This document shows, piece by piece, positions 7,368 to 43,696 of a stretch of DNA of 64,000 nucleotides. Origin of the DNA: Candidatus Oxydemutatoraceae bacterium (GTDB lineage Bacteria; Pseudomonadota; Gammaproteobacteria; Poriferisulfidales; Oxydemutatoraceae); contig OZ244717.1 of NCBI GenBank assembly GCA_965218975.1, forward strand, positions 992,001-1,056,000, written 5' to 3'. The notes below the pieces were generated by a model that saw only the letters and a program-made list of their open reading frames with translations, was not told the DNA's origin and searched no databases. Positions within the stretch are counted from its first letter, which is position 1. Each line of letters opens with the position of its first letter. Position numbers and translations under genes: made by a program.

Positions 7368-7847
7368 TGTACGATGCCACTCTAAATGGGATTTTTGAAG
7401 GGCTTCGGGGGAAGCGTTCGGCAGTAACATTCGGATCGGTGCTTTCTGTCCGTTGCCGGCATGAGGACGGTGCAGGGTGAGACGCGCCCGGAAAACCAAT
7501 TGGTTTTCAGCGGTGAACGACCCGACAAGGACGTCGGGGCTGGGGCTTGTTGACAGAACCCAGTCGCGTCATGGATGACAGGCACCTTGCTGACAATCCG
7601 GCACAATCCGCCGACAACACACTAACAAACATAAAACGGTTTCATAACTGGTCATTGAATGCTTCCGTATCGGCGAATAGCAGGTCTTCTGCATGATTGA
7701 TACAATCTTCTTGGACGGTGCGGTTGAAGCACTTGATGTGCGTGTTTATTTTTGGACACTTGGGATAGGTCAGTCACTGCTCAATCATGGGTGATTCCCG
7801 GATGAGCCGGGCAAACTGTCCTTGAAACTCACTCCCGCCGTCCGTCA
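7368..7847 (-). mobile_element. IS481-family remnant: decayed integrase core plus right end, interrupted by a palindromic element
   Basis: Minus strand 7645-7847 reads LTDGGSEFQGQF..*LTYPKCPKINTHIKCFNRTVQED..EDLLF..FNDQL (rve-like). 7368-7474 reads HRPH...KSHLEWHRT into a terminus TGTACGATGCCACTCTAAATGGGATTTTTG. Confidence 0.75.
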
Positions 7848-8540
7848 GGGTGAGACGCGCCCGGAAAACCGATCGGTTTTCAGCGGCGAACAACCCGACA
7901 AGGATGTCGGGGCTGGGGTTCATTCGCAGAACCAAGTCTCGTCATGGGTGAGACGCGCCCGGAAAACCAATTGGTTTTCATCGGTGAACGACCCGACAAG
8001 GACATCGAGGCTGGAGCTTGTTGACAGAACTCAGTCGCGTCATGGATGACAGGCACTTTACCGACAATCCGGCACAATCCGCCGACAACACGCCAGCAAA
8101 CACAAAATGGTTTCATCAGTTCAAAGACTTTACTGTTGCCGAAATTCTGCTAGGCGCAGGGTGAGACGCGCCCGGAAAACCAATTGGTTTTCAGCGGTGA
8201 ACGACCCGACAAGGACGTCGGGGCTGGAGCTTGTTGACAGAACCCAGTCGCGTTATGGATGACAGGCACCTTGCTGACAATCCGGCACAATCCGCCGACA
8301 ACACACCAACAAACATAAAACGGTTTCATCAGCTCAAAGACTTTACTGCTGCCGAAATTCTGCCAGGCGCAGGGTGAGACGTGCCCGGAAAACCAATTGG
8401 TTTTCAGTGGCGAACGACCCGACAAGGACGTCGAGGCTGGATCTTGTTGACAGAACTCAGTCGCGTCATGGATGACAGGCACTTTGCCGACAATCCGGCA
8501 CAATCCGCCGACAATCTGGCAACAAGCGCAAAACGGTTTC
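7475..8540 (+). repeat. Array of a ~70-bp double-hairpin core: 5 copies starting at 7475, 7848, 7946, 8159, 8372; the last three have a 213-bp period
   Basis: Recurring GGGTGAGACGCGCCCGGAAAACCAATTGGTTTTCAGCGGTGAACGACCCGACAAGGACGTCGGGGCTGG, usually followed by a shared ~100-140 bp tail. Confidence 0.95.
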
Positions 8541-8789
8541 GTGCTGAATCGGTTGCGGTCAGGTCCGCTGGCGCCTCTTACGCGGCGCTTTGCCGCGATC
8601 ATGTAAGGCGCTGAGGCCAGTGCGGCGATAACGCCGCCGCCAGCGGTACAAAGTACTGCGACCGATCTTGAATGCGTTCGGGAGTTACAACCCTCCCAAA
8701 ATGAGGGCATCATATTTCTGTTGAAGATTAGAGCGCTCATGAGCCTCTATTTTTGAAGCAAAATTGGCTCATATAGAAACCTTTGATGC

Positions 8790-8843
8790 GGTGGCCGATG
8801 TGTTGATATTGCATAGTTGATATTGCATATCGGTCACCTTTTT
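8790..8843 (+). terminator. Intrinsic terminator-like hairpin containing a 14-bp tandem duplication
   Basis: Stem GGTGGCCGATGTG/CATATCGGTCACC (two G-U pairs) followed by TTTTT; GTTGATATTGCATA occurs twice at 8802-8829. Confidence 0.55.
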
Positions 8844-9042
8844 GAGTAAGCCGTGAGTCCCATATGTATCTGGCACTATACATTAAATATCGTTTCAGAC
8901 GGTACGAGTATATTGTTTTCCGTTAATTTTTTTATCCAAAGTAATGCAGGAGATCTCCCCCGCAGGAGAGAACCCTACGGGGTGAATGAAGATGCGGCTG
9001 TCGCCACAATGTGATGGTTTTAGATGACTGCTATAAGCAATC

Positions 9043-9225
9043 TCAGTGCATTGAAAGGATTACGTTGGTGTATAAACCAACCGCCGATATGATCAGCAAG
9101 CTCATGCCGACAAACAGTCCGACAACCCATTTGATGATATCGTTCTTAATTTCAAGAAGCTTTTGATCAAGCCGGTCTTCAATTGAATGGAGTTCTCGTT
9201 GAAGCTCTTCTCTAGTAATTTCTAT
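9043..9225 (-). CDS. Small coiled-coil plus C-terminal TM protein (DUF1640/CCDC90-like), no ATG start; not in the ORF track
   Basis: IEITREELQRELHSIEDRLDQKLLEIKNDIIKWVVGLFVGMSLLIISAVGLYTNVILSMH*; AAGGAG lies 9 nt upstream of the ATA codon. Confidence 0.55.
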   Translation of the reverse strand: MEITREELQRELHSIEDRLDQKLLEIKNDIIKWVVGLFVGMSLLIISAVGLYTNVILSMH

Positions 9226-9632
9226 TGTCGTGTTCTCCTTTAGTTACGAGGAGACCTACCACCGGGGTAAGCCCCCTGCGAGTTCAGCATCATGAGACGC
9301 CGACCGTAACCGGTATGAGCATCAGTTGCCTCAAAATATTGAGATAAGAATGGCATCGTTAAAGTAACTTGTCAAGCAAAATTATGCTCCCGCGGGAGCA
9401 CCTAAGATATAAGTAATGCAGGGCGTTAAAAATTGCTATTCTCGTCAATGAGAGAATGAACAGAAACCGGTCCGTATGATTTTCGATTTTCATGGAAGCG
9501 GCAGTCGAGGGAATGGGAATAATTCACGCTGGAAAATAAAAATGCCGGTGCGGCATGTGCCCCTTACACTTTTACTTGTAAGTGGATATGATGGTGTTAT
9601 CGGTAAAGCAGCAGCTGATAAAAAAGACACTT

Positions 9633-10301
9633 ATGAGAATTATATTGCTGGGAGCGCCCGGTGTCGGCAAAGGCACGCAGGCTCAATTCATTTCGCAGAC
9701 ATTTCGTATCCCGCAAATTTCCACTGGCGACATGTTGCGCGAAGCTGCGCATGGCACTGACAAGTTGGGTATGCGCGTGCAAAAAATTATGCGCGATGGG
9801 CAGTTGGTTCCCGATAGCATCGTAATTGATTTGGTGGAACAACGCTTGCAGAAGAGCGATTGCAAATCAGGCTTTCTACTTGACGGATTTCCCCGCACCA
9901 TCGCTCAAGCCTATGCACTTGACGAACGCGGTATCGAAGTGGACTATGTGATTGAGATTCGGCTAGCGGATGATGAGATCATACGGCGTTTGAGCGGTAG
10001 AAGATTCCATCCGGCATCCGGCCGCACTTACCACATAGAATTTAATCCGCCGCGTCGCCTCGGAATGGATGATGTGACCGGCGAAGCTCTCGTTCAACGC
10101 GATGATGACCGTGAAGATACTATCAAGCGGCGGTTAGCGGTTTATTATCACGCAACCGCTGAGCTCATCGCTTATTATCGGGAATACTCCAAGCAACATG
10201 GTGCGCGCTACGTTGCGGTTGAGGGCAATCGCGAGATTCAGGTCATACAGGTAGATATTGCGCGGCAGTTGCAAACGAGTGATAGTAATTCGCAGAAATG
10301 A
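9633..10301 (+). CDS. adk: Adenylate kinase
   Basis: [57 protein letters not shown]. Confidence 0.97.
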
Positions 10302-11305
10302 GCTATAAAGTTTATTTTAGACACAGTGACAAAGTCGCGACGGTTGAATCCGGCGAATCTATTTTAGCGGCGTCGATTCGCGCCGGGCTGCATATTAATT
10401 ACGGTTGCAGTAACGGGAATTGCGGTCTGTGCTCGGCGCGTCTGATTGCCGGTGAGATAAGCCGAATTCAGTATCATGACCATCACTTTAGCGCGGCGGA
10501 GAAGATTAAGGATTATTTTTTGATGTGTTCCAATACTGCCGTCAGCGATATCATTATCCACACTGATATCGCCGATACGGCGACACAGTTGGAGGTGCGT
10601 TCTTTCCCTACCAAAGTACGCTCACTCAAGCAATTAAATGACACCGTAAGCTTATTAGTTTTACAATCTCCACGCAGTCAGCGTTTGCGCTTTTTTGCCG
10701 GTCAATACGCACGTTTGCAAGCAGGTGCCGGCGGTGAATTTTCGATTGCCAGCTGTCCCTGCGATGAACGACGTCTGGAATTTCACATTCCGTATCATAA
10801 GCATCCGTTTTGTCAATATATTTTTAACCATTGCGCTATCGGGGAAACTTTGCAAGTTACTGCGCCGTACGGCGAATTCGTTTTCACCGAAGATTTAAAT
10901 CGACCGATTGTTCTGATCGGGTTCGGTGTCGGCTTCGCATCGATTAAGAGTTTGTTTGAACATATCATCGCACAAGAATCCGAAACCCCGTTAAAGCTAT
11001 ATCAAGTGAATACGCCGGGCGGACATTATCTTGCAAATTTATGCCGATCGTGGAACGACAGTTTAGATCAAGTCGAGTATTATCCGATAGATCTTAAGTT
11101 TGACTTCAATGCCGATGACGGACAAGCAGTGGCACAGTGTGTGAATGAGATTGCTTGCGCGCAACTTGATGCATTGCCGGTTGCCGATGTTTACTGTTGC
11201 GCTCCTGCCGCCGCTCATACCGCAATTAAGCGGGTATGGGCAAAGTTTCCGACACCGGAATGGCGATTGCTTTACGAACCGATTCGCGACCGAAGTATGC
11301 CGTGA
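10298..11305 (+). CDS. 2Fe-2S ferredoxin / FAD-NAD(P)H oxidoreductase (CDP-6-deoxy-delta-3,4-glucoseen reductase-like)
   Basis: [11 protein letters not shown]...LMC 2Fe-2S motif, [29 protein letters not shown]. Confidence 0.8.
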
Positions 11306-11382
11306 AACTGTTACAATATATTAACAATGGCTATTTTACTTAAGGAACGGACAATCATTCCAATCGGGGTGATCAATTAGTT

Positions 11383-12597
11383 TTGAATATTTTCCCTACG
11401 CATAATACACGTGTTGTTTCGGGTATGCGTCCCACGGGGGCTTTACATCTCGGGCATTATCACGGCGTGCTAAAAAATTGGTTGAAACTACAAGACTTGC
11501 ATGAATGCTTCTTTTTCGTCGCCGATTTACATGCCATGACCACGCACTACGGCAAAGCTGATCGGTTTGAAGCGAATGTATTTGATATGGTGGTAGATTG
11601 GCTTGCTTGCGGTATCAATCCCGGTGCATCCACTTTGTTTGTTCAATCACGTATCGTCGAACATGTCGAGCTGCATTTATTGTTGTCAATGATTACTCCG
11701 AAAAGTTGGTTAGAGCGTGTGCCAAGCTATAAAGATATGCAGGAAAAGTTGACGGACGATCTGACAACCTATGGCTTTTTAGGTTATCCCTTGCTACAGT
11801 CGGCGGACATTTTAATTTATAAAGCCAGCTTAGTGCCGGTCGGTGAAGATCAAATGTCGCACATTGAGCTAACTCGCGAAGTTGCCAGACGGTTTAATTA
11901 TATTTTTGGGCGCGAAGAAAATTTCCTTGAAAAAATTGAGGTGGCGCTAAACAAAATGGGTAAAAAAAACGCAAAGTTGTATCAAGATCATAGGAAAAAA
12001 TTCCAAGAAAAGGGTGATGTTGAAGCATTTTCAGCCGCATGCGCATTAGTGAATGCCCAGCAAAATACTTCAATCGGCGATGCCGAGCGACTGATCGGCT
12101 ATCTTGATGGTTCCGGCAGAGTCCTTTTGCCGGAACCGCAAGCTTTGTTGACGGATGCGGCAAAAATTCCCGGCACCGATGGTGAGAAAATGTCCAAATC
12201 GTATAATAATACGATCACTTTGCGTGAATCCGATGAATCCATCGAGAAAAAAATTCGCGCGATGGTGACTGATCCGGCAAGAGCGAGGCGTGTTGATCCG
12301 GGCGACCCTGAAAAATGCCCGGTTTGGCAGTTGCATCATATATACTCTAACGATGCGGTAAAAAGCTGGGTTGTAGAAGGATGCAAAAGCGCCGGTATCG
12401 GTTGCGTTGAATGCAAGCAGCCGGTGATTGACTCAATGAAAGCGGAGATCGGGCCGATTCGTCAACAGGCGTTAGAATATGCGCGGGACAAGCAGACCAT
12501 CCACAAAATTATTTTGGAGGGCAATGAGGCAGCGCGCGAAGTCGCAGGTGAGACTTTGACTGAATTGCGCCAAGTAATGGGTTTGTTATACTATTGA
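11383..12597 (+). CDS. trpS: Tryptophan--tRNA ligase
   Basis: SGMRPTGALHLGHY (HIGH), GYPLLQSADIL, VPVGEDQ, KMSKS. Confidence 0.97.
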   Translation: MNIFPTHNTRVVSGMRPTGALHLGHYHGVLKNWLKLQDLHECFFFVADLHAMTTHYGKADRFEANVFDMVVDWLACGINPGASTLFVQSRIVEHVELHLLLSMITPKSWLERVPSYKDMQEKLTDDLTTYGFLGYPLLQSADILIYKASLVPVGEDQMSHIELTREVARRFNYIFGREENFLEKIEVALNKMGKKNAKLYQDHRKKFQEKGDVEAFSAACALVNAQQNTSIGDAERLIGYLDGSGRVLLPEPQALLTDAAKIPGTDGEKMSKSYNNTITLRESDESIEKKIRAMVTDPARARRVDPGDPEKCPVWQLHHIYSNDAVKSWVVEGCKSAGIGCVECKQPVIDSMKAEIGPIRQQALEYARDKQTIHKIILEGNEAAREVAGETLTELRQVMGLLYY

Positions 12598-13403
12598 TGG
12601 AACAAGAGCAAGCAACAACGGAACGAGTCGAACGGCAAGCTTTTGCCGTTGTCGAAGGTCGTTTTTTGCACAGCGCTCCTGAGGACTTGTACATTCCCCC
12701 GAACGCATTGTACGTTTTTCTTGAAGCGTTTGAAGGACCGCTCGACTTATTGCTGTATTTAATCAAGAGGCAAAACATTGACATCCTAAAGTTGCCGATC
12801 ACACCCATCACCGAACAATATATTCAATATATTGAAATGATGCGTGAGTTTCACTTGGAGATTGCCGCGGAGTATCTGGCGATGGCGGCGCTACTCGCTG
12901 AAATTAAGTCGCGGATGTTGCTGCCGCAACCGCGGCAAGACGAAGACGAGAAAGATCCGCGTGCCGAGTTGATTCGTCGTCTACTGGAGTATCAGCGATT
13001 CAAGCAAGCGGCCGACTCGATCGGAGTCATGCAGCGTATGGAGAAAGACACGTTTGAGGTTGGCGCCGACACATCCGATTTGCTTGTTGAAAAAGTATAC
13101 CCGGAAGTTAAGTTAGAAACGATCCTGATGGCGTTCCAAGATGCTTTGCGCAAGGCTGATTTATATCGCAGCCATCATATTAAACGTGAGCCATTGTCGA
13201 TACGTGAGCGTATGACAATCATTTTGTCATTGGTTTCCACCACCGAACTGATTCCGTTCAGTCAATGCTTTATGTCTGAAGAAGGGCGTAGCGGTATTGT
13301 CGTCAGTTTGCTTTCTTTACTTGAGATGCTACGTTCCGGTATCATTGAAGTAGTACAAACCGAATCTTACGGGCAGATTTACTTGCGCGCGTCATCGGCA
13401 TAA
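12594..13403 (+). CDS. scpA: Segregation/condensation protein A
   Basis: FEGPLDLLLYLI, AEYLAMAALLAEIKSRMLLP, DPRAELIRRLLEY. Confidence 0.95.
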   Translation: MMEQEQATTERVERQAFAVVEGRFLHSAPEDLYIPPNALYVFLEAFEGPLDLLLYLIKRQNIDILKLPITPITEQYIQYIEMMREFHLEIAAEYLAMAALLAEIKSRMLLPQPRQDEDEKDPRAELIRRLLEYQRFKQAADSIGVMQRMEKDTFEVGADTSDLLVEKVYPEVKLETILMAFQDALRKADLYRSHHIKREPLSIRERMTIILSLVSTTELIPFSQCFMSEEGRSGIVVSLLSLLEMLRSGIIEVVQTESYGQIYLRASSA

Positions 13404-14087
13404 TTGAATAGTTTAATGATGGATAGCGTAATGATCAGACAAGCGGTTGAAGCACTATTGCTTGCAACCAAATGTCCGCTTGCGGTTCGGGATTTGGCGC
13501 AACTTTTGACGCACAACAATAATCAACCGTCCGTGCGACAAATTGAGTCGGCAATCAAAGAATTGCATGATGAGTGCTCAGATCGCGGCATTGAATTGAC
13601 TGAAGTCGCATCAGGTTATCGCTATCAAACTCGTCCTTCATTTGCGCCATGGGTGGCAAAACTCTGGGAGGAAAGACCGCCACGCTATTCGCGAGCATTA
13701 CTTGAAACATTGGCTCTGATCGCTTATCGTCAACCGATCACTCGCGCCAAAATTGAAGAGGTGCGTGGAGTTGCAGTGAGCAGTAGCATTATTCAATTGT
13801 TGGAGGAGCGCCATTGGGTTAAAACTTTGGGGCGCAAAGAAACTCCCGGCAGACCGCTTCTGTACGGCACGACCAAAGCATTCCTTGATTATTTCAACCT
13901 ACGTTCGCTTGATGAGTTGCCGGCGTTGATGGATTTGGAAAAAGTGGCGCAACTGTATCCCGAGCTGAATGTTTCAGGTTCTAGGCTTACTAAGACTTCA
14001 GACGGCTCTGCGGATGGCATCTCTAAAGAGAGTGATCACGGGGGAGATACGAATGTCGCCGAAGCAACCGATATCGGTGAACATTAA
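13404..14087 (+). CDS. scpB: SMC-Scp complex subunit ScpB
   Basis: EVASGYRYQ, YSRALLETLALIAYRQPITR, PGRPLLYGTTKAFLDYFNL. Confidence 0.95.
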   Translation: MNSLMMDSVMIRQAVEALLLATKCPLAVRDLAQLLTHNNNQPSVRQIESAIKELHDECSDRGIELTEVASGYRYQTRPSFAPWVAKLWEERPPRYSRALLETLALIAYRQPITRAKIEEVRGVAVSSSIIQLLEERHWVKTLGRKETPGRPLLYGTTKAFLDYFNLRSLDELPALMDLEKVAQLYPELNVSGSRLTKTSDGSADGISKESDHGGDTNVAEATDIGEH

Positions 14088-14902
14088 TGTCAAGCGTCAG
14101 TCATAAACATAGATCGGAAGTATTTTTGGAACCGGAGCGCATCCAAAAACTTTTAGCCGGACACGGATTAGGTTCGCGGCGTGAGATTGAGTTATTAATT
14201 GCCGAAGGTCGAGTGCAAGTCAACGGGCATACCGTACGCCTAGGCGATAAAGCAACTTCGGTTGACGAGATATTGATTGATCAAAAAAGAGTGAGTGTTC
14301 GCCGACAGATTATATCTTGCGCACTGCTATATCATAAACCTTGCAGTATGTTGGTTACTCGTAAAGACCCGCGAAAACGCCCGACCGTGTTCTCAATGTT
14401 GCCTAAACCGTTACAAGGCCGGTGGGTCGCAGTCGGACGACTTGACTGTAATACATCCGGGTTACTAATTGTTTGCAATGATGGTGAGTTGGTAGCTAGG
14501 ATGATGCATCCGTCATATCGGCTTGAGCGTGAATATCGCGTACGTGTTTACGGTCACGTGACCAAACGCATTTTGCACAATCTTCGTGAAGGTGTATTGC
14601 TGGGTGGGCGATATGCGAAATTTGACATGGTGGAACCGTGTACCGCGACCGAAGTTCATGGAGTGAACCGTTGGTTTCGGGTCGTACTAAGCGAGGGGAG
14701 AAATCGTGAAGTGCGGCGCTTATGGCAGTCGCAAGGAATGGAAGTGAGTCGTTTGGAACGGACTCGTTTTTGTTTCCTACGGCTAGATACTTCGCTTGGA
14801 ACTTGGCGTTGGTTGACAGCAGACGAATTGACTCGGCTTTACCAACGAGTGAATTTGCCGGCCGCGCATTATTTAACTCGGATTGGAACGCAACGTAAAT
14901 GA
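14087..14902 (+). CDS. rluB: 23S rRNA pseudouridine synthase RluB family
   Basis: S4 domain ERIQKLLA..GSRREIE, catalytic VGRLDCNTSGL, EGRNREVRRLW; scpAB-rluB synteny. Confidence 0.88.
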   Translation: MSSVSHKHRSEVFLEPERIQKLLAGHGLGSRREIELLIAEGRVQVNGHTVRLGDKATSVDEILIDQKRVSVRRQIISCALLYHKPCSMLVTRKDPRKRPTVFSMLPKPLQGRWVAVGRLDCNTSGLLIVCNDGELVARMMHPSYRLEREYRVRVYGHVTKRILHNLREGVLLGGRYAKFDMVEPCTATEVHGVNRWFRVVLSEGRNREVRRLWQSQGMEVSRLERTRFCFLRLDTSLGTWRWLTADELTRLYQRVNLPAAHYLTRIGTQRK

Positions 14903-16737
14903 TGGCAGAGATGAAACAATTATCTTCGGCACATGGTGTGCGCATGAGCGGCGCCGATACGATCATACAGGTATTGGCGGATATGAACGTTGATACGATT
15001 TTCGGTTATAGCGGCGGGGCGATTTTACCGACTTATGACGCCATTTTTCGTTTTAATAAAAAACACGGCCGGGATTTAATCAATTTAGTGGTTCCGGCCA
15101 ACGAACAGGGTGCCGGTTTTATGGCGGCAGGTTATGCTCGTGCCAGCGGTCGGCCAGGTGTTGCGATGGTGACTTCAGGGCCGGGTGCTACAAACAGCGT
15201 TACGCCGGTACGTGATTGCATGGCGGACTCAATTCCGATTGTATTGATTTGCGGACAAGTGCCGGTCCATGCAATTGGCACCGACGCTTTTCAAGAAGCC
15301 CCGATTTTTAATATCATGGCGTCATGCGCCAAGCACGTATTTTTAGTGAAGGATCCGACACGGCTTGAAGCAACAGTGCGTAGCGCATTTGCGATTGCTA
15401 CTTCGGGTAGACCGGGGCCGGTTGTTGTGGATATTCCTAAGGATGTGCAAAACTGGGAGGGCGAATATCAAGGTCAGGGGATACTTGAATTGAGTGGATA
15501 TTGGGAGCGTATAAAACAGCGGCGGAATAATGTTCTAACTCCGCAATCGGCCGCTAAATTTTTCAGTTTGTTAAAACGCTCGCAGTATCCGTTGCTGTAT
15601 ATTGGCGGTGGTGCATTACATGCCGATGCGAGTGCTGATTTACGCAAATTTATTGACCGTTATCAAGTGCCGTTTGTAACGACCTTAATGGGAATCGGCG
15701 CGGTTGATACTACGCATCCGTTATGCTTGCATATGCTTGGCATGCACGGCACCGCGTATGCCAATTACGCGGTAGAGGACTGTGATTTGTTAATTGCGTT
15801 AGGCGCCCGATTCGATGATAGAGTTGCCGGGCAACCGCAAACTTTCGCGCCCAATGCAAAATCAATCCTGCATATTGATATTGACAGTGCTGAAATTGGT
15901 AAAGTTAAAGCAGTTCATTGGTCGCATCATGGCGATGCTGCCGAAACTTTGCGCCAACTAATGCGCTATGACGATGGTTTTGCTGCGGACTTTACTCAAT
16001 GGCATCGGCAGATTAAGCGATTAAAGACTAAGTATGCGTTGAATTATGATCGCGACAGCGATTTGGTGCAACCTTACTATGTAATGGAGCAACTCAAGGA
16101 ATTGACGCGCGGGGAAGCGATTATTACCACCGGGGTCGGACAGCATCAAATGTGGGCGGCGCAATACCTAGATTATCGTTCACCGCGCAGCTGGCTGACT
16201 TCAGGTTCGATGGGAACGATGGGGTTTGGCTTGCCGGCAGCAATCGGTGCACAATTTGCCCGGCCCGATAAAAAAGTATTTGATATTGATGGCGATGGTA
16301 GTTTGCGTATGAATTTTGGCGAGCTGGAAACAGTGACTACTTATAAACTGCCCATCAAGATATTATTGCTTAATAACCATGGAGATGGCATGGTGCGCCA
16401 GTGGCAAAAGCTATTTTTCAAACATCGTTTTTCAGGTAGCGATAAATCTCTACATCGCAAGGACTTTATTAAGGCTGCCGAGGCCGATGGGTTTTTATTT
16501 GCTAAACGGATAGAAAAAAAAGCCGATGTGGCGCCGATTCTCAAGGAATTTGTTGCAACCGATCAGCCGGCGTTTCTTGAAGTAATAATTGATAAAGATG
16601 CGGGCGTTTATCCGATGGTAAATCCCGGCACCGGTTACAAACAGATGATCACCGGCGATTATATTCCTAAACGCTCGCAGGATGATGAATTAGATGAGTT
16701 TAGAGAAAATCCGGTAAGTAGCCAGAATATGTTTTAG
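14899..16737 (+). CDS. ilvB: Biosynthetic-type acetolactate synthase large subunit
   Basis: IFGYSGGAILP, EQGAGFMAAGYAR, TSGPGATN, GTDAFQE, MLGMHG, RFDDRV, VGQHQMWAAQ, GDGS..NN, GMVRQWQ. Confidence 0.88.
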   Translation: MMAEMKQLSSAHGVRMSGADTIIQVLADMNVDTIFGYSGGAILPTYDAIFRFNKKHGRDLINLVVPANEQGAGFMAAGYARASGRPGVAMVTSGPGATNSVTPVRDCMADSIPIVLICGQVPVHAIGTDAFQEAPIFNIMASCAKHVFLVKDPTRLEATVRSAFAIATSGRPGPVVVDIPKDVQNWEGEYQGQGILELSGYWERIKQRRNNVLTPQSAAKFFSLLKRSQYPLLYIGGGALHADASADLRKFIDRYQVPFVTTLMGIGAVDTTHPLCLHMLGMHGTAYANYAVEDCDLLIALGARFDDRVAGQPQTFAPNAKSILHIDIDSAEIGKVKAVHWSHHGDAAETLRQLMRYDDGFAADFTQWHRQIKRLKTKYALNYDRDSDLVQPYYVMEQLKELTRGEAIITTGVGQHQMWAAQYLDYRSPRSWLTSGSMGTMGFGLPAAIGAQFARPDKKVFDIDGDGSLRMNFGELETVTTYKLPIKILLLNNHGDGMVRQWQKLFFKHRFSGSDKSLHRKDFIKAAEADGFLFAKRIEKKADVAPILKEFVATDQPAFLEVIIDKDAGVYPMVNPGTGYKQMITGDYIPKRSQDDELDEFRENPVSSQNMF

Positions 16738-16799
16738 CGCAACCACGGGTTCTTTATAATTATTAAAACCCGTTAAGAAAAAGACAGGAGAAATATGCA

Positions 16800-18461: not shown

Positions 18462-18508
18462 TAATTAGTCTGATACCGTAATGAATATGGGCAGCCGAGA
18501 GAAAGAAA

Positions 18509-23620: not shown

Positions 23621-23633
23621 ATTACGCATAACG

Positions 23634-24506: not shown

Positions 24507-24510
24507 GGCT

Positions 24511-24891: not shown

Positions 24892-24916
24892 TAATCGGTT
24901 TGATTGCAGAGAGGGT

Positions 24917-30769: not shown

Positions 30770-30862
30770 GATTGTACTTTTGCGTTACATAGCATATAGT
30801 GAAATCCTTTGAATGTAGCGTATAGTTATTCTATTATAGTTTTGCTCAGGCCATATAGTTAT

Positions 30863-32386: not shown

Positions 32387-32388
32387 AT

Positions 32389-34196: not shown

Positions 34197-34217
34197 CCGG
34201 CAAGCACGTTTCCATAT

Positions 34218-35027: not shown

Positions 35028-35404
35028 AATAAAGGCTGCCGAACTTAGTCAGGGATCAGTTCAACTAATCAAAGGAGCACAATAACCTTACTATTGCCAA
35101 TATATTCTCATGCAAGGCATAATAACTAAAAACTGCTGAGCAAACTTATTTTAATTGCAGTGAAAACTGCTGTATTTCAGGATGCCAAATGCTTAAAATT
35201 AAGTACTTTCATCAAAGTAAGTTATGCCGAGCTTTGTTCCGCGACGATGTCGGTTGGTTAATAATGCAAACATCTGCGCAACAGTACGGTGGGGAGAAAT
35301 AGCGGTTTGGTGTCGCAGCGGCAAAGCATATCTAATACGGTGATGTTAGGGAAAAGGAGTTGGTATTAATGCGTATTTTTCAGATTGAAACGAATATTTA
35401 GCCA

Positions 35405-37192
35405 ATGGCGATTCAGCAACTTCCACCGCAATTAATTAATCAAATTGCCGCCGGAGAGGTCATTGAACGCCCCGCTTCCATTGTGAAGGAGTTGGTTGAA
35501 AATAGTCTTGATTCCGGAACGGATAGTATCCGTATTGAGATTGAGCAGAGCGGCATTAAACGAATTCGCGTCAGTGATACCGGTTGTGGAATTGCCAAAG
35601 ATGAATTGGCGCTCGCACTGTCACGTCATGCAACTAGTAAGATCGGCAGTCTTAGCGATTTGGAATCCATACGAGATTTTGGTTTTCGTGGTGAAGCATT
35701 GCCGAGTATCGCATCGATTTCGCGCCTAAAACTGATCTCACGTACTGCGACGGAGCGTAGCGCTTGGATGCTGAGTGTTTGCGGCGACGATATGATGGGC
35801 GATCCCCAACCGATTGCCGGGGCGATAGGTACGACAGTTGAAGTGTCGGATATTTTCTTTAATGTTCCGGCCCGCCGCAAATTTTTAAAAACGGAGCGGA
35901 CCGAATTTCAGCACATACAGAGTTGGCTGGCAAAATTAGCGCTTGCGCGCGTTGATGTTGCATTTGAGTTTAAGCACAACGGTAAGGAAGTATTCTGTTT
36001 TCCAGGGGAAAAAGACGTGCGCCACGTTGAAATCAGATTGCAAAAAATATTGGGAGCCAGATTTACTGAACAATCGGTTTGGTGTGAGCAGACAAGCGAT
36101 GGAATGTCGCTTTGCGGTTGGTTGGGACTCCCGACTTTGGCGCGCAGCCAGCCGGATATGCAATATATTTATGTTAACAACCGGGCGGTTCGCGATAAAA
36201 CTTGCGCACATGCCGTGCGTCAAGGATACCGCGATGTCTTGTATCATGATCGCCAACCTTGTTATGTTTTGTACCTCAACATTGATCCGCATCTAATTGA
36301 TGTTAATGTGCATCCGGCAAAGCTTGAAGTACGGTTTTCCAGACAGAATTTCGTGCATAGTTTTATCAGCCGGGTAGTGGAAGAGACCATCGCCGCGATT
36401 CGACCGGACAGCGAAAAAATGCAATCGGCGGAACATTATCGCCGCTTAGTCAATGAAAATCCCTCGGTTAGCGCCGCCGCGGCGTATTCGGCACGAAGTT
36501 CAGGGAAAACCGCCTCCCTTCATTTGCTGCAATCGTCTGTTCCGCGGGCAAACGCAAGCGCTGCTCCGGCAGCCTTGATATCAGCGGGCGTGGAAGAAAC
36601 CGATCAGCAATTACCGCTAGGCTTTGCGGTTTGCCAATTGCACCAAATCTACATCGTCGCGCAAAATAGCGAGGGAATGATTTTGGTTGATATACATGCG
36701 GCGCATGAACGCATCACTTATGAACGACTGAAAAATGCTTATCATAAAGAAGGCATCCGTTCGCAGCCTTTGCTAGTCCCGATAACACTGACAGTTAATG
36801 AGAAAGAAGTGGAAATTTGCGCACAGTATCAAACGCAGTTGAAAGCGTCCGGTTTTGAAATTGATGCGTTGGGTAAAGATACTTTGGTTGTTCGTCGAGT
36901 GCCGACATTGCTGACATCTGCCGATGTTGAGAAAATGGTGCGTGATTTATTATCAGACATCATTGAGCACGGTGCTTCAAAACGCGTCGAGTCGGACATC
37001 AATGCGTTACTATCTTCAATGGCTTGCCATGGATCGGTACGTGCCAATCGCCGATTGACGATACCTGAAATGAATGCTTTGCTGCGCGATATCGAAGAGA
37101 CCGAACGTAGCGGTCAATGTAATCATGGTCGCCCGACATGGGTCTTGCTGAGTATTGATCAACTTGATAAACTTTTTTTACGTGGTCGCTAG
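35405..37192 (+). CDS. mutL: DNA mismatch repair endonuclease MutL
   Basis: NQIAAGEVIERP, KELVENSLD, GFRGEAL, DIHAAHERITYE, MACH, CNHGRP, FLRGR. Confidence 0.97.
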   Translation: MAIQQLPPQLINQIAAGEVIERPASIVKELVENSLDSGTDSIRIEIEQSGIKRIRVSDTGCGIAKDELALALSRHATSKIGSLSDLESIRDFGFRGEALPSIASISRLKLISRTATERSAWMLSVCGDDMMGDPQPIAGAIGTTVEVSDIFFNVPARRKFLKTERTEFQHIQSWLAKLALARVDVAFEFKHNGKEVFCFPGEKDVRHVEIRLQKILGARFTEQSVWCEQTSDGMSLCGWLGLPTLARSQPDMQYIYVNNRAVRDKTCAHAVRQGYRDVLYHDRQPCYVLYLNIDPHLIDVNVHPAKLEVRFSRQNFVHSFISRVVEETIAAIRPDSEKMQSAEHYRRLVNENPSVSAAAAYSARSSGKTASLHLLQSSVPRANASAAPAALISAGVEETDQQLPLGFAVCQLHQIYIVAQNSEGMILVDIHAAHERITYERLKNAYHKEGIRSQPLLVPITLTVNEKEVEICAQYQTQLKASGFEIDALGKDTLVVRRVPTLLTSADVEKMVRDLLSDIIEHGASKRVESDINALLSSMACHGSVRANRRLTIPEMNALLRDIEETERSGQCNHGRPTWVLLSIDQLDKLFLRGR

Positions 37193-37442
37193 AATTATCT
37201 GATCTTCCTTTCTTTGGGAACGGCTCCAAGAAGTTTTAAGATTTTTAATTTGATGTCTCCTGTCGAAGCGGAATCTACCAATCTCGATCGTAATACGTAT
37301 CGGTAAGCGTCAAGTTATTCAATTATTCGACGATCCGCGGCAACGTTCATGGATGTATAGGGGTTGAACATCCCACTCGGATATACCGAGCTGAAACTAT
37401 GGGTTGCGGCAACCTGAATTATCGGGGAGGAGGCAAGACTGA

Positions 37443-40400
37443 TTACGCCTCGCCCGCCTGATTATACGCAAGACTGAACACAGCATTGCTCATCCATCGC
37501 TTAAAGCTCTCGTTGTCCATAAACTGCCTGAACAGTTCGGTGTCGTCCTTCACGAGTGAGGTCATCACGTGTAACAACGCCTTGTCGTGTTCAATGCGGG
37601 CGTTCTCACGATCGGAGTTTTTCCGGGCATTGCGGAAGGCGGTGTCCACGGCGACGCGAGTGGGAATGGTCTCGGTGATGAGCTGTCGCACGCGGTCGGC
37701 GTCCTCCCACCGGATGTCGCCGGACAGATCGTTGAACTCCCTGATGATGTTCGAGAGCCGATCCATCTCAGGTTCGGGGTGGTAACCGCCTCCGGCAGGT
37801 GGCACCGGTTCGATTTCAGCGTCCTGGTCAGGTAACATGATTTGTTGCATCGCCTGCTTCTCAACCCGATAGCTGTCTAAGTCAATAGCGTCCAAGATGC
37901 CTTTGGACAGGTCGTCTTCCTTGGGGGCAGGTAGCTTCAAGATCAGAAAATTCAGGAAGATTGAGCGCTTCTCCCAGCTGGCATTGTTATAAGGCAGGAC
38001 CGACGACAGAAAGGCATAGGTCCGCACGAACGCCTTGGCGTTGCCCTTGAACTGCACCTGACCGTCTTCGTCCAGGTCGCGCAGATAGACCGCCACGCAG
38101 GCGTCGAGGATCGGGTCGAGCCGGTTGCGTTCGGCGTCGTTCAGGTAGCATCGCACGAAATCTTCAATCTGCTCGTTGGAATACACCTGGACGCGATCCA
38201 GATCCGCCTGCAGGTCGTGTAGCTTATTGGGGTCGGTCTCGTCGGCCAGGATCGTTGCGCGGTAGAAATCTGCGAACGCGTCGCGGATCGTATCGGCGTC
38301 GTTCAGAAAATCAAGCACGAACACGTCGTGCTTCTTGAGGTGAGCCCGGTTGAGTCGCGACAACGTTTGCACCGCCCTGATATCCGAGAGCGTCTTGTCC
38401 ACGTACATCGTGTGCAACAGCGGTTCGTCGTAGCCGGTCTGGAACTTGTCGGCGCAGACTAGGAAGCGGTACGGGTCTTCTTGGAACCGCTCGGTGATCC
38501 TGGCGGAAGGAAAGCCGTTCAGCGATGCCTCGCTGACCCTTGATCCGCCGTGCTCGTGCTCGCCTGAGAATGCGACTAGGGCCTGATAGCGGCTCTTACA
38601 CTCTTGCAGGTAGTTCCGAATGGCATAAAAGTACCGGATCGCGTGATTGATACCGTTGGTGACCACCATCGCCCGCGCTTCGCCGCCGATCTTTTTTTGG
38701 GCCAGCACTTGTTCGCGGAAATGATCGACCATGATCTCAGCCTTGAGACGGATTGCGTGGTCGCTGCCCTCCACGAAACGCCGCAGCTTCTTCTGCGCTT
38801 TGCTGGCGTCGAACTCCGGGTCGTTCTCCACTGTCTTAGCAAGCCTGTAATAGCTATTCACCGGCATGTAGTGGGCGAGCACGTCGAGGATAAATTTCTC
38901 CTGAATCGCCTGCTTCATGGTGTAGCTGTGGAAGGCATGATGCTTCACGGCGCCATCCGGCTGCGGGTCCGGGGTGCCGAAGATCTCCAACGTTTTGTTC
39001 TTGGGCGTGGCGGTAAACGCAAAGTAGCTGGCGTTGGGGAGCAGCTTGCGCGACTCCATCAGGCGGTTGATCTGATCCTCGTAGGTCTCCTCTTCGCTTG
39101 CTCTGCCGCCCGGCGACAGCGACTGTGCCATAGCTGCGCTGGTTCGCCCGCCCTGGCTGGAGTGTGCCTCGTCAATTATGATCGCGAAGCTGCGTCCGCG
39201 CTGCTCGTTGCCGATCTTGTCGAGGACGAACGGGAACTTCTGCAGCGTGGAGATGATGATCTTCTTGCCGCTCTCAATGAATTTGCGCAGGTCGTCCGCG
39301 TGCTTCGCGTGCCCACCGTTGATCCCACTTGGGTGTACTGCCGAATCGTATCGCAGATCTGCCGGTCAAGGATACGGCGGTCGGTAACCACGATGATTGA
39401 ATCGAACACCGGGGTGCCGTCTCTGGCCAGCCCGATCAGTTGGCGGGCAAACCACGCGATGGAATTGCTCTTGCCGCTGCCGGCCGAATGTTGGATCAGG
39501 TAGCGCCGACCCGCGCCGTGAGTGCCGACGTCGGTCAGCAGGCGGCGCACCACGTCGAGTTGGTGGCAGCGCGGCCAGATCTGAGTGCGCTTCTTTTTGC
39601 CGGTTTTCTCGTCCTTCGCCTCCACTACCTGAGCGTAGTTTTCCAGGATGTCGGTCAGGCTCTCGCGGGTCAGCACTTTGTGCCACAGGTAGTCGGATGC
39701 CAGCCCGTTCGGATTGGGCGGATTACCTGCGCCGTCATTCCAGCCGCGGTTGAAGGGCAAGAACCAAGACGCCTTCCCATTGAGATGGGTGCAGAATTGT
39801 ACCTCGCGCTCGTCTACGGCGAAGTGCGCTACGCAGCGGCCAAGCTTAAACAGCCTCTCGCGCGGGTTGCGGTCTCGTTGATACTGCAATACCGCATCGC
39901 CTGCCGTTTGCTTAGTAAGGTTGTTCTTGAGTTCGAAGGTGAACACCGGCAGTCCGTTAATGAATAGCCCGATGTCCAGCGCCCGCTGTGCTTCGTTACG
40001 GCTGTAGCGTAGCTGCCGGCTGACGGTGAAACGGTTTTGCTCGAACCGTTCCTGTGCCTGCTGATTACCGGGCGAGGGTGTGCCGTAGAACAGATTCAGG
40101 TGCTGTGCTCCATGCTTGATTCCTTGGCGTAGCGCGTCAATGGTGCCGCGCTTGGAGATTTCATCTTGCAGCCGCGCCAAGAACCGGCGTCGCGTGGGTC
40201 CGTCCTCGGAAAGCGCCAACGATTCGGCGGCTTCCGGCTGAGTGGCGCACAGGAAAGCCGCAAGTTGGGCCAGATCAACACAGTGCTCGCGGTCGTAATC
40301 ATTGGAGTTGCCGCCGCTCCAGCCCACACCACCGTAGCGGGTGGGCGGCCTGGCCACGGTGCGTGTCGCCACCGGATCGCAGGGATGGCCTGCCAGCGCC

Positions 40401-40447
40401 GTGCAGATGAGGCGTTCGAGACTGCGTTCGGAAGTGTCTGTAGCCAT
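37443..40447 (-). pseudogene. hsdR: Type I restriction endonuclease subunit R, split by a 1-bp frameshift at ~39312
   Basis: FELKNNLTKQ, FLPFNRG, QHSAGSGKS; frame is restored by one extra G to give VGHAKHADDLRKFIESGKKIIISTLQKFP...IIDEAHSSQGG; then FTATPK, KFQTGYDEP, QTLSRLNR. Confidence 0.85.
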
Positions 40448-40550
40448 TCTATCAAGTGCCCGTCAAGTAAAAACGACTCTCATAAGTTACTGATTATCTT
40501 GGCCTTTCTTTGATTCCACAGGACGAAATACCTCTGCAGCAACTATCTGA

Positions 40551-40802
40551 TCAAGTAACGGTCAAGCTCTCTTTCTTCGCCCACCACGGCACATATCGCT
40601 TCCACTTAGGGGCCGCATTGGGATCGTTAGGCATTATAGCGCCTTCATCAATCGCTTCTGTGATCAGTCGCGAAGCCTGCGCGCTGTTGCGTGCCGCAAT
40701 GCGAAATCGTCCCCGAACCGAGGCATTGGTCACGTATTCCCGGTTCACATATCGCAGGCAGGCATGAAAATACGTAGCGCGCACTCTCTCTGTTTTGTCC
40801 AT
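40551..40802 (-). pseudogene. C-terminal winged-helix fragment of an AlbA/ATP-binding (RecG-C-like) regulator
   Basis: MDKTERVRATYFHACLRY...TNASVRGRF...ASRLI.EA...YVPWWA is the typical end of this family; the N-terminal part is absent. Confidence 0.6.
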
Positions 40803-40811
40803 GTTTGACAG

Positions 40812-41527
40812 CGGTCAATCATGCGTAATCCTGCCACATCGGCACCCGCTTCTATGTATCGATCATAATTCGTCGTAAAGAGATGTAAGCGTTCACGGGT
40901 GCCTGATCGGCTGGCGAAACTCATTAGAAAGCTGACGAGATAGTTGAAAGCTTGCTCACGTTTCTCATGTTCTGCCGAGACAAGGTTGCGCTCCCCTTCT
41001 AAGAGTGAAGCAGTAAACGATTGGATTGCTTTTGCCAGCCCTTCTCGCAAGGATGAGATTTGCGTGCGTTCTGGAGCATCGTCCGACTTCTTGGAAGCGA
41101 TTATCTCCAAGCCACGGAATAACTCGTTCGCTACTCGAATCTGATCCTCGAAGTTTCCGCTCTGGCGTCGTGTGGTTTCCGCAATCCGCTTTGCCTCTGC
41201 CGCGATTTCATCATCAAAAACACCAAACCGGATGGTTTCCATCCCTGGTAGTTCCTTATCCATTGCTATTCCATGAACAGCGTGGGTGAGACCCGAGCCG
41301 ATGAGTAAAGAAAGGTGTTCAGATTGAACAAGCGCGGTCAGCCACGGCTCAATGCGAGGTCAAAGCTTCTCAGGGCCAATATCGTCGCGATCAGTTGCCC
41401 ACGAGCACGTTGCCTTGTTTGATAACTTGAATGGTTGTTCTGACAACGAGTCGGCTCGGTCCATGAGAACTATCGAGTGGTCATCCCGCGATTTGAGAAT
41501 TTGTTGGTGACCTTGTTTCGCTATCAT
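40812..41527 (-). pseudogene. SIR2-family (SIR2_2) protein, N-terminal part; internal TGA at 41360-41362 and 3' truncation
   Basis: GGAGGTG Shine-Dalgarno and ATG at 41527; EKL*PRIEPWLTALVQSEHLSLLIGSGLT; LHLFTTNYD; sequence breaks off after RMIDR, before the expected KLHGS motif. Confidence 0.75.
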
Positions 41528-41530
41528 GCT

Positions 41531-41647
41531 TCACCTCCTAATAGCTTCCCTGTTTCTCTCTAGAGTCAGGATGTCGGCACGGATTCCTTCCAGCGTGCGC
41601 ATCGGTTGCGGCTGGCAGCCGGGAAAGGATTTGAAGCAGGAGATCAT
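41531..41647 (-). pseudogene. Short scar resembling the C-terminus of type I R-M subunit M
   Basis: Reads QPQPMRTLEGIRADILTLER, close to the PQPMRTLEEIRADILALE ending of HsdM proteins. Confidence 0.45.
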
Positions 41648-42825
41648 GTGTTAGCCTCCGGCTCGGTATCGTGGAAAAGGCCAATATAGTCCCGATACAT
41701 GAACCTCCGGTTGCGGGTCTGACCGGTGAATTCGTGCAGGATGCCGCAATTGGCCATCCGCGCAACGAGATTGTTTGCCGCGGTGTAGGTTATTCCGGTC
41801 AGGCGCTGCACGCTACTTACCGATACGATCGGGTATTCATAGATATATTCCAGCACACGATGGCCGTTGGCGGCGGCGCGGCCGAAGTTGTCGGTGATCA
41901 CACGACGGTGTTCTTCACGGAGAACGAGTATTTGCCTCGCTGTGTCGGTTGCCTGTTTGCTCACCTCCACAACCCCACGCAGGAAAAAGGTGAGCCACCG
42001 TTCCCACGTTCCGGCGTCACGCACCGATTGCAGTTCGTCGTAGTATTGCTGCCGGTGCTGTTTGAAGAACCAGGAGAGGTAGAGAACCGGTTTTTGTAAC
42101 ACCTCCCGCTCGCAGAGTAAAAAGGTGATGAGCAGCCGCCCTACGCGCCCATTGCCATCCAAGAAGGGGTGGATCGTCTCGAACTGGCCATGGGCGAGTC
42201 CGATTTTGACCAGTAGAGGCAGGTCGGTCTCGGCGTGGATGAATCGTTCCAATTGCGACATATCCTCCGCGACCTGATGGGGCGGAGGCGGGACGAAGAG
42301 AGCTTCATGCAGCGTACAGCCGGCAGGCCCGGTCCAGTTCTGGCTGCTCCGCAGTTCGCCGGGCGTGAGATGAGAACCTCGCGTGCCTTGGAGAAGTTTG
42401 GCATGGATTTCACGGATCAGTTGGATTGAAACCGGTATTTCAGACAACCTTTTTAGACCGTGATTCATGGCATTGACATAGTTCACCACTTCGCCTACGT
42501 CGTTTGCTCGATTCGGAGTGAATATTCTCGCTTCAGCTGCCAGCAGATCCTGCAGCGAGCTTTGCGTCCCCTCAATCTGGCTCGACAGCACGGCTTCCTT
42601 GCGGACGTACATGAGAACAAATAAATCCGGATGAGGTAGTGTTTGTATGGACCCGTCAAGACGACCCAGGGCGCGGTCGGCCTGAGAAAGCAGCACTTGC
42701 AACTCTCCAGTGATTTTGACGGGCGAATCAGGCGGCAAAGGCGTCGGAATGAAGGCTCGGTAACCGTCTCGCTGTTGCCTGTACGTCCCTGCGCGAGCAG
42801 TATAATCGTTTTGGTAGTCGGTCAT
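41644..42825 (-). CDS. Fic family protein (class II, N-terminal autoinhibitory motif)
   Basis: HPFLDGNGRVGR Fic motif, SSQIEG inhibitory motif, C-terminal wHTH ending TGQTRNRRF. Confidence 0.93.
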   Translation of the reverse strand: MTDYQNDYTARAGTYRQQRDGYRAFIPTPLPPDSPVKITGELQVLLSQADRALGRLDGSIQTLPHPDLFVLMYVRKEAVLSSQIEGTQSSLQDLLAAEARIFTPNRANDVGEVVNYVNAMNHGLKRLSEIPVSIQLIREIHAKLLQGTRGSHLTPGELRSSQNWTGPAGCTLHEALFVPPPPHQVAEDMSQLERFIHAETDLPLLVKIGLAHGQFETIHPFLDGNGRVGRLLITFLLCEREVLQKPVLYLSWFFKQHRQQYYDELQSVRDAGTWERWLTFFLRGVVEVSKQATDTARQILVLREEHRRVITDNFGRAAANGHRVLEYIYEYPIVSVSSVQRLTGITYTAANNLVARMANCGILHEFTGQTRNRRFMYRDYIGLFHDTEPEANT

Positions 42826-43696
42826 ATTACTCTTTAGTTTAATTACAGAGGCAAAACGAACTCATATTACACGCAAACTTTAATATAAGAGAATTTAACC
42901 ACCTTACACAAGGCTGCCTATAATATAATCGCTTTTGAGGGTTTTGTTGATAGTTGCATACAATATAGGAGCGAAGTCTGCCTGCGACAGCTCAGTGCCG
43001 ACGGGCGGAGTTCACTGAACGCCAGCCCCGACGTCCTTGTCGGGTCGTTCGCCGCTGAAAATCGATCGATTTTCCGGGCGCGTCTCACCCTGCGCGAGCG
43101 GTGTAATCGTTTTGGTAGTCGGTCATATTACTCTTTAGTTTAATTACAGAGGCAAAACGAACTCATATTACACGCAAACTTTAATATAAGAGAATTTAAC
43201 CACCTTACACAAGGCTGCCTATAATATAAACCGCTTTCAAGGGTTTTGTTGATAGTTGCATACAATATAGGAGCGAAGTCTGCCTGCGACAGCTCAGTGC
43301 CGACGGGCGGAGTTCACTGAACGCCAGCCCCGACGTCCTTGTCGGGTCGTTCGCCGCTGAAAACCGATCGGTTTTCCGGGCGCGTCTCACCCTGCGCGAG
43401 CGGTGTAATCGTTTTGGTAGTCGGTCATATTACTCTTTAGTTTAATTACAGAGGCAAAACGAACTCATACTTACACGCAAACTTTAATATAAGAGAATTT
43501 AACCACCTTACACAAGGCTGCCTATAATATAAACCGCTTTCAAGGGTTTTGTTGATAGTTGCATACAATATAGGAGCGAAGTCTGCCTGCGACAGCTCAG
43601 TGCCGACGGGCGGAGTTCAATGAGCGCCAGCCCTGACGTCCTTGTCGGGTCGTTCGCCGCTGAAAACCGTTCGGTTTCCCGGGGCGCGGCTCACCC
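42787..43696. repeat. Three tandem ~302-bp units: fic 5' end, fic upstream region and the double-hairpin core in reverse orientation
   Basis: Unit junctions CCC at 42787, 43088, 43390, 43694 (periods 301, 302, 304); units differ by a few substitutions and indels. Confidence 0.95.

Follow-up and report, generated by a model that had tools for sequence, protein, structure and literature searches.

An internal structured module of dead IS481-family copies with one recurrent breakpoint in a Candidatus Oxydemutatoraceae genome

Repeats at two loci of the window

The subject of this analysis is a family of hairpin-forming repeats in a 64,000-nucleotide stretch of the genome of a Candidatus Oxydemutatoraceae bacterium (GenBank assembly GCA_965218975.1, contig OZ244717.1, positions 992,001 to 1,056,000), hereafter the window, whose coordinates are used unless a contig position is given. 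The window sits in a single contig of 2,081,000 bp with 47.7% G+C, and the genome is 99.4% complete. Its adenylate kinase is no guide to placement, the best matches being scattered over Gamma- and Betaproteobacteria at no more than 51-62% identity. A first-pass annotation had described the repeat as a non-autonomous element of about 70 bp that copies adjacent DNA into arrays from one fixed end. We find that the repeat is an internal structured module of about a hundred dead copies of an insertion sequence (IS) of the IS481 family.

Reading of the window sequence bears out the copies that had been annotated, with five on the plus strand at locus 1 (starts 7475, 7848, 7946, 8159 and 8372, each opening GGGTGAG) and three on the minus strand at locus 2 (ends 43090, 43392 and 43696), the third of which is degenerate. 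The 18-bp palindromes stand at the positions claimed for them, and the second hairpin, CCCGAC-AAGGAC-GTCGGG, is present. Tandem Repeats Finder recovers both arrays, one of 2.8 units of 213 bp (91% matches) at 7946-8540 and one of 3.0 units of 302 bp (97% matches) at 42787-43696, together with a 98-bp period at 7843-8049.

A module within the transposase gene of locus 1

Locus 1 is a decayed copy of about 1515 bp on the minus strand (7368..8882), recognised by its inverted ends and transposase fragments, and it holds all five locus-1 repeats. We use the name ISx for the lineage-specific IS481-family element that hosts the repeat. The ends of the locus-1 copy read TGTATAGTGCC... from 8882 downward and ...GGCATCGTACA ending at 7368. 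Followed in the transposase sense (8882 to 7368), the copy opens with the left inverted end (8858..8882, like the features after it on the minus strand) and an N-terminal transposase remnant with the helix-turn-helix part (8541..8828, where 8544-8675 correspond to positions 22-65 of the hidden Markov model), continues with three 170-nt units with their linkers and a 98-nt unit, and then passes a second transposase remnant (residues ~190-262), one more 170-nt unit and a C-terminal remnant before it reaches the right end. The three units and their linkers form the 213-bp array (7946..8540), each period of which comprises a 170-nt unit (7946-8115, 8159-8328 and 8372-8540) and a 43-nt linker (8116-8158 and 8329-8371). 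The 98-nt unit (7848..7945) meets the next unit at the junction ..CACCC/ATGACG, of a class common to 84 cores in the genome, and the remnant of residues ~190-262 (7645..7847) reads LTDGGSEF...FND, or t230-308 in the numbering of P0003, one of the closest intact transposases. The fourth 170-nt unit (7475..7644) joins a transposase-derived left part to the structured module, of which 7475-7546 had first been taken as the core; the C-terminal remnant with the right inverted end (7368..7474; ..RPH..GQK..WHRT, P0003 residues ~300-344) has a right junction common to 54 cores genome-wide. The first codons of the N-terminal remnant (MQYQ) carry a perfect 14-bp tandem duplication (GTTGATATTGCATA twice, 8802-8829) that is not in the other 67 left ends listed.

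The DNA on the left of the module is part of the transposase gene. The linker and the start of the 170-nt unit align to P0003 as native transposase codons ~100-121, and in the 275-kb copy RRTWPQLIQREIKRLRQDHLNLGSSKIFELMKPFC aligns in one frame with P0003 RRKWPRAITREIKRLRMEHPNLGPAKINVLLKPFC, and REIKRLR..NLGSSKIFELMKPFC with P0003 REIKRLRMEHPNLGPAKINVLLKPFC. Because the linker and unit start align as native codons, the left "end" of the module is not the end of an element. An assignment of the linker to residues 176-189, which arose from the shared word CCTGCGCC, was rejected; the P0003 alignment gives residues ~100-117. The DNA that accompanies the repeat in the 213-bp unit had been regarded as locus-specific, a view that does not survive a search of the genome: this transposase coding sequence gives 250 high-scoring segment pairs (HSPs), seven of them near-full and five of these seven at other loci. 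The reading frame containing KPFC is open through the 213-bp units (open reading frame, ORF, at 8150-8740). The left part of the 170-nt unit also contains an 11-nt repeat (GGATTGTCGGC / GGATTGTGCC) in 2 to 5 repeats per copy (7590-7630, 8060-8100 and genome-wide), and its varying number shifts the reading frame through the unit. A 5-bp duplication (CTGAY) flanking the second-slot unit was considered and set aside, being absent at the other slots.

A high-copy family in dead ISx copies

An 82-nt query returned 328 HSPs from the genome and a 100-nt query returned 323 matches, among them 304 full cores (150 on the plus and 154 on the minus strand) distributed over 97 clusters. Since 298 of the 323 matches are at least 100 nt long and reach query position 100, the unit measures at least 98 nt and the family is a high-copy one; the earlier count of eight copies at two loci is true inside the window only, and the earlier length of about 70 bp was too short for a unit that in its 98-nt form folds with a closing stem and three hairpins. 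The largest arrays have 12 units, and the family amounts to ~30 kb of the 2.08-Mb genome. It appears to be confined to this genome. The core DNA was not found in the 40 relatives searched, an exact 25-mer pattern has no match in genome_contigs or in metagenome_contigs, the 170-nt unit has no match in the plasmids or phages searched, and the peptide encoded by the module, compared with longer proteins, has none either, which is weak evidence. Comparison with Rfam gave no match at E≤1 for positions 7000-9000 of the window, and ARAGORN found no tRNA-like gene. An early comparison with NIME/BIME/BOX-like intergenic mosaics was dropped once the IS481 context became clear.

That context is pervasive. 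The IS481 profile NF033577 gives 118 fragment matches in the genome, many of them adjoining cores, and there is no intact ISx transposase gene among them, none of the 118 exceeding the 224-bit cut-off (best, 90.1 bits). When cores, IS ends and transposase fragments were mapped together they fell into 127 clusters, of which 97 contain modules (323 copies), and 90 of these 97 have IS features within 700 bp. The seven others hold 22 copies; two of the seven retain the tip of the right end and two adjoin another TGTATA-type end. The orientation of the module relative to the transposase remnant is nearly constant, the exceptions being three clusters that mix several IS copies. The placement of 90 of 97 clusters inside IS481 remnants, this near-constant orientation and the transposase codons at the left end together speak against a free-standing element.

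The inverted ends of ISx (TGTAYAGTGCCAGATACAT.../...CCCATTTAGAGTGGCATCGTACA) are of the TGTA...TACA form, with the left consensus TGTAYAGTGCC, and could be placed at 41 left and 84 right positions genome-wide. Four of 31 left-right pairs are flanked by a perfect 5-bp target duplication (CCCTT, ACTTA, GCGCC and TCTAT), far above chance for exact 5-mers in 31 pairs, and module-rich copies are among the four; 18 pairs have no duplication and nine share 1-3 bases. Inverted ends and 5-bp duplications of this kind, found on whole composite copies, are typical of DDE transposition. The closest intact transposases, P0003-P0005, are metagenome proteins of 51-55% identity (55% over the catalytic part), and the copy at 1.497 Mb aligns with P0003 residues 1-344 at 41% identity. 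These homologues have no insert at the site of the module, only ~6 residues.

Beside type A there is a second IS481 subfamily (type B; transposase about 40% identical). Every type-A copy that retains the region has the module between ...KPFC and CPSVRT..., and the module end precedes all 19 type-A CPSVRT sites genome-wide, one of which keeps just its last ~14 nt; on this ground we regard the module as ancestral between KPFC and CPSVRT. Several type-B copies have patches of type-A linker and modules or are fused to type-A tails (contig positions 588803-590168, 1202992-1205814 and 205953-206767), and other A/B hybrid copies exist. On its ragged side the type-B patch brings along 19 nt of the type-A linker; on the other it ends at CACCC. 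These mosaics point to recombination between the IS subfamilies.

Copies of ISx are mildly co-directional with replication (61 versus 36, p=0.014). The cumulative GC skew of the whole contig is lowest near 270 kb and highest near 1.5 Mb, and these extremes make the replichores unequal, about 1.23 and 0.85 Mb. At contig positions 148900-154000 we also observed two inverted module arrays, of three 152-bp and five 98-bp units, each directly beside a different end of the TGTATA type; between them they enclose some 3.4 kb in a composite-transposon-like arrangement.

Predicted fold and base-pair changes

As DNA, the 98-nt unit is predicted to form a 6-bp closing stem (GACGCG/CGCGTC) and three hairpins, with a predicted dG of -22.2 and -21.8 kcal/mol on the two strands (z -2.7 and -3.3). 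The breakpoint described below lies 6 nt outside this predicted closing stem. The 18-bp palindrome, said at first to stay perfect as its sequence changes, does so in 216 of the 304 copies and not in the rest. Its perfect variants are CCGATCGG (132 copies), CCAATTGG (79), GCAATTGC (4, in one array) and TCGATCGA (1, at 43057 in the window), and half-step intermediates are present.

Pairing was analysed in 83 of the 304 cores, 59 of them distinct, where the palindrome is 99.4% paired and the second hairpin 94.6%. The compensatory changes of the first-pass annotation are found in the palindrome, in which two of eight pairs have changed on both sides, and not in the second hairpin, with none of six. 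Double-change cells number 16 against a shuffled mean of 4.9 (no shuffle of 500 was as high), and 15 of the 16 come from one switch, GATC/AATT, in the four central bases, where a hairpin would have its loop. Compensation is real but thin.

One fixed end with many partners

The sharp end at GGGTGAG recurs throughout the genome: 289 of 326 matches to the 170-nt unit finish on its last base and 16 more within two bases of it, and the starts of these matches scatter over more than 30 positions (among them 36 at position 1, 45 at 42, 67 at 59 and 43 at 67). In the transposase sense this fixed end reads ...GTCTCACCC, and the sequence after ...CACCC divides the 304 cores into 37 junction classes. The most frequent partner is the next unit in a 98-bp period (84 cores), followed by the IS tail (54), the next unit in a 107-bp period (29), the linker (28+9), residue ~190 of the transposase (26), CPSVRT (15), the tail after a 17-nt deletion (11), the start of the unit in a ~163-bp period (6), the type-B subfamily (3) and the Fic-domain gene of locus 2, fic (2); 19 classes have partners that occur once. 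The undeleted IS tail and the forms with deletions of 17, 23, 42, 67 and 75 nt all begin at the fixed end.

The partners share 1-6 nt with the end of the module. For 17 classes the partner is also found in its native context elsewhere, where C, CC or CCC precedes it in 14. TG starts 16 of the 37 classes, and several partners natively follow CCTG, giving overlaps of 4-6 nt with CACCCTG(C). Since the available overlap differs by partner, the breakpoint moves over a few bases, from CACCC to CACCCTG(C), and a moving breakpoint fits annealing better than it fits a single scissile bond.

Most of this composite architecture was inherited as the IS spread, because only 89 of the 304 cores are matched best by a core of their own cluster and because the palindrome type tracks the junction class. 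Some arrays contain identical units (five at 153 kb and three of 152 bp at 149 kb), and the units at fic are 97-100% identical; these arrays show recent local growth.

Capture of a promoter at the fic locus

At locus 2 the fixed end is joined to host DNA. The gene concerned is an intact Fic-domain gene (41644..42825, minus strand, identified with Pfam), and the 302-bp array (42787..43696, plus strand) holds copies of its promoter and of its first 13 codons. Each of the three units combines 36-39 nt from the 5' end of fic with about 185 nt of DNA from upstream and a module remnant of 82 nt. The first remnant (43012..43090, plus strand like the other two) carries the TCGATCGA variant of the palindrome, ends in ..CACCC and is joined to fic codon 13; the second occupies 43314..43392; and the third (43616..43696), which is degenerate, is joined at its right end to the IS tail after a 67-nt deletion, and beyond it lie the final 40 nt of a right end of ISx (43697..43736, plus strand; ..CCCATTTAGAGTTGCATCGTACA). 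Here the annotation of a locus-specific flank was correct, since 220 of the 302 nt are unique and only positions 221-302 of the unit recur elsewhere, and adjacent host DNA was indeed copied into an array with its junction exactly at the fixed end. The array junctions read ...GTCTCACCC followed by TGCGCGAGC and the genuine gene reads ...ACGTCCC followed by TGCGCGAGC, an overlap of CCC(TGC). The array units are 97-100% identical. On the evidence of these junctions, a truncated IS remnant beside fic seeded the triplication of module, promoter and 13 codons.

Upstream of the intact gene, the array thus contains the promoter three times and two mini-ORFs of 13 codons. The extra fic starts (43091-43126 and 43393-43428) consist of ATG and 12 codons, and are closed by a TGA inside the GGGTGA of the module.

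Contigs of the fic locus are present in four sequencing runs of one study (X1-X4), with no RNA run listed; one of the four may be the source of the assembly, and contig depth in them should not be read as copy number. For the part of the 302-bp unit that is unique, the depth is 395 against 135-158 for its flanks in X1 (about 2.7x), 240 against 65-89 in X3 (about 3x), 26 against 8-15 in X4 (about 2-3x) and 19 against 15-17.5 in X2 (about 1.2x). These depths support the triplication, and they hint that the number of units varies between samples. A contig of run X2 over 43104-43318 is 487 nt long, 272 nt of which lie off the window, and has the depth of the flanks; it may be an allele without the array. 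Contig joints from the runs were not used, being short-sided (20-46 nt) and arising from shared module words. Just past the IS tail, 43957-50228 encodes a SNF2/helicase protein of 1190 aa that ends in a NOV_C domain and then a 900-aa ORF, with overlapping stop and start, which could be a defence-type gene pair.

Mechanism and alternatives

We think it moderately probable that replication slips at the foot of the module's fold, promoted by that structure, and that this explains the arrays, the deletions and the patches. From the location and anatomy of the module, its fixed end, the junction catalogue with its microhomology and the absence of the enzymes tested, we infer both slippage as the mechanism and its direction. 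The ancestral type-A element would have carried a module of ~98 nt in its transposase linker, between ...LMKPFC and CPSVRT... and after a short run of the 11-nt repeats, which when single-stranded would fold into the closing stem and three hairpins. DDE transposition of the ordinary kind, with its inverted ends and target duplications of 5 bp, would have spread this composite element, and the zone just outside the closing stem, ...GTCTCACCC(TG), would repeatedly have served as one breakpoint of small rearrangements. Most likely, a nascent strand ending ...CACCC(TG) leaves its template and re-pairs at a nearby C-run or CCTG. Upstream re-pairing would yield the tandem duplications of 98-, 106/107-, ~163-, 213- and 302-bp units, the last of which would have copied the fic promoter and start; downstream re-pairing would yield the nested deletions into the IS tail; and re-pairing on another IS copy would yield the patches seen in further subfamilies of IS481. 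The direct repeats so formed would then have recombined unequally, with changes in copy number. Pausing, dissociation and re-annealing at a hairpin base with short direct repeats form the standard slippage model (PMC4134008), and hairpins have been proposed as the driver of Wolbachia variable-number tandem repeats (VNTRs) of ~105/141 bp (PMC3287509).

Several points weigh against this explanation. Standard slippage pauses before a template hairpin and would delete the module rather than join it to new DNA; the junctions seen here require release of the nascent strand just after the module has been copied, which is plausible if the nascent strand folds. It is not obvious why the fold should favour nested deletions of 17-75 nt into DNA that lacks structure, and three of the 17 classes with a native partner (contig positions 677759 and 699184 and the 241.6-kb array) lack a C before it. 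The C-runs at the partners would be expected equally of a sequence-specific nuclease that acts on single strands and cleaves after a short, C-rich word. No outgroup dates any of the steps, because no copy of the module was found outside this genome, and copy-number change between samples is only hinted at.

The annotation of the repeat as a one-ended element that copies adjacent DNA anticipated its fixed and ragged ends and the arrayed host DNA at locus 2, but a free-standing element is not supported. In that model the module would provide the origin end of a rolling-circle or HUH-type element that is non-autonomous (IS91/ISCR/Helitron-like or an IS200/IS605 miniature); nicking would occur at one fixed site, and one-ended copying would take variable flanking DNA along. 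This would accommodate the capture of host DNA at fic, the type-B patch with its exact CACCC end and, at its ragged side, 19 nt of flank from type A, and the position of the breakpoint, since many HUH nick sites lie a few nt 3' of a stem; miniature one-ended derivatives of IS801 are reportedly a precedent. Against it, Y1 HUH transposases (PF01797) have no match in the genome (control positive in 6 of 14 genomes), and no gene for a relaxase, TrwC, MobA/MobL or Rep_trans was found there; Y2 (PF04986) and the IS91 zinc domain (PF14319) also have none, with controls positive in 0 of 14 genomes. Nor did the genome yield a reverse transcriptase or IS110 gene, and no link to the arrays was found for its tyrosine recombinases (four intact and one broken). 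The copies are moreover confined to IS481 remnants in a fixed orientation, their left boundary is native coding sequence, the breakpoint shifts between CACCC and CACCCTG(C) with the microhomology of the partner, the replication strand bias is just mild (61 versus 36), and overlaps of 1-6 nt suit annealing-based slippage no less than an enzyme. We therefore consider the rolling-circle reading doubtful, and a dedicated enzyme outside the tested families that cuts or primes the fold foot is a similarly slim prospect. If such an enzyme did exist, the module would represent a new non-autonomous kind of one-ended, single-strand "copy-and-join" element inside an IS, capturing flanks and host promoters. 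That the IS481 transposase itself made the junctions through cryptic internal ends, by aberrant or intramolecular transposition and adjacent deletions, strikes us as improbable. One-ended nested deletions are classic for DDE elements, 16 of 37 partners start with TG and CA precedes the module on the originally annotated strand, as at DDE ends, and the tail segment starts with TGCACCGT, which matches the true end TGTACAGT in six of eight bases; however, the conserved side of the junctions is the module, unlike inverted ends, CCTG microhomology explains the TG equally well, tandem duplications are not an expected product, and the fic units are 97-100% identical although no active transposase is left.

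The remaining alternatives concern the nature of the module rather than of its breakpoint. It could be a palindromic insertion, like a miniature inverted-repeat transposable element (MITE) or an RPE, that entered the ancestral transposase once in frame and has been passive since, with the rearrangements as by-products. The intact homologues without a module, a 6-bp closing stem that could represent short inverted ends, the KPFC frame that stays open, and a similarity of the module between IS subfamilies (~92% in nucleotides) far above that of the surrounding transposase remnants are all as this idea would have it. We nonetheless find it unlikely, as no copy outside an IS context has both ends defined, the module is flanked by no target duplication and has no relative in the other genomes, plasmids or phages searched, and hybrid or patched IS copies explain its sharing between subfamilies. 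Selection on the module as functional structured DNA or RNA, be it a transposase regulator, a protein-binding palindrome or an sRNA (small RNA), would account for the well-paired palindrome, its excess of double-change cells and its four perfect variants; yet covarying pairs are few (2/8 and 0/6), one loop change supplies 15 of the 16 double-change cells, the second hairpin decays without compensation, Rfam has no match at E≤1 and all host IS copies are dead, which leaves this a long shot. High-copy tandem repeats are hard to assemble, and the arrays could on that account be assembly artefacts. We regard this as extremely unlikely: the assembly is a single 2.08-Mb contig, in two of four runs (one of which may be the source sample) contig depth over the unique sequence of the 302-bp unit is about 2.7-3 times that of its flanks, and the same junction classes recur at many loci.

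Comparison with known systems

The family is a natural catalogue of dozens of rearrangements sharing one breakpoint beside a DNA fold, which should be useful for the study of structure-steered duplication and deletion. The triplicated promoter and start of the Fic-domain gene indicate that dead insertion sequences can keep reshaping neighbouring genes. For annotation, the lesson is that arrays of this kind are not a REP (repetitive extragenic palindromic), CRISPR-like or sRNA system.

Several known systems share part of this picture. With REP elements and BIMEs served by RAYT (REP-associated tyrosine transposase) and with IS200/IS605 miniatures the family has in common clustered, high-copy hairpin repeats; however, this genome has no Y1 match, and the modules are not extragenic, lack a GTAG-type head and measure ~98 nt rather than 20-40 nt. 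One-ended derivatives of IS91/IS801 offer a likeness of form only, in their one fixed end, variable other end and carried flank, whereas here Y2 has no match (with controls positive in 0 of 14 genomes) and the modules are confined to IS481 remnants. A MITE differs from the module in that the latter has only a 6-bp closing stem, no flanking duplication and no lone insertion with both ends defined.

Parallels are also found among hairpin VNTRs and minisatellites, since the ISx units also lie head to tail with hairpins, in periods of 98, 213 and 302. Wolbachia VNTR-105 and VNTR-141 (PMC3287509) are head-to-tail units of ~100-140 bp with one or two hairpins, for which slipped-strand growth was proposed. 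They occupy two intergenic loci, whereas the ISx modules comprise ~300 units at 97 loci and were spread by an IS; the reuse of one fixed breakpoint for deletions and for the capture of host DNA likewise sets the module apart from the Wolbachia repeats. Hairpin-promoted slippage (Canceill & Ehrlich; Viguera et al., as covered in PMC4134008) resembles our case in having its breakpoint at the fold foot and short direct repeats, but the classic form deletes the hairpin, whereas the ISx module survives and acquires new neighbours on both flanks. The host itself is a recognisable member of the IS481 family by its transposase homology (NF033577), its TGT...ACA-type inverted ends and its short target duplications, and is unlike other members in that every copy is broken, with a foldable ~98-nt module and module arrays inside the transposase gene; a limited search of the open-access literature turned up no account of an IS481 element with a module like this. 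What this analysis adds is a census of the family, the proof that its left end belongs to the coding sequence of the transposase, a catalogue of junctions and their microhomology, target duplications, enzyme searches that came back negative, and the capture of the fic promoter.

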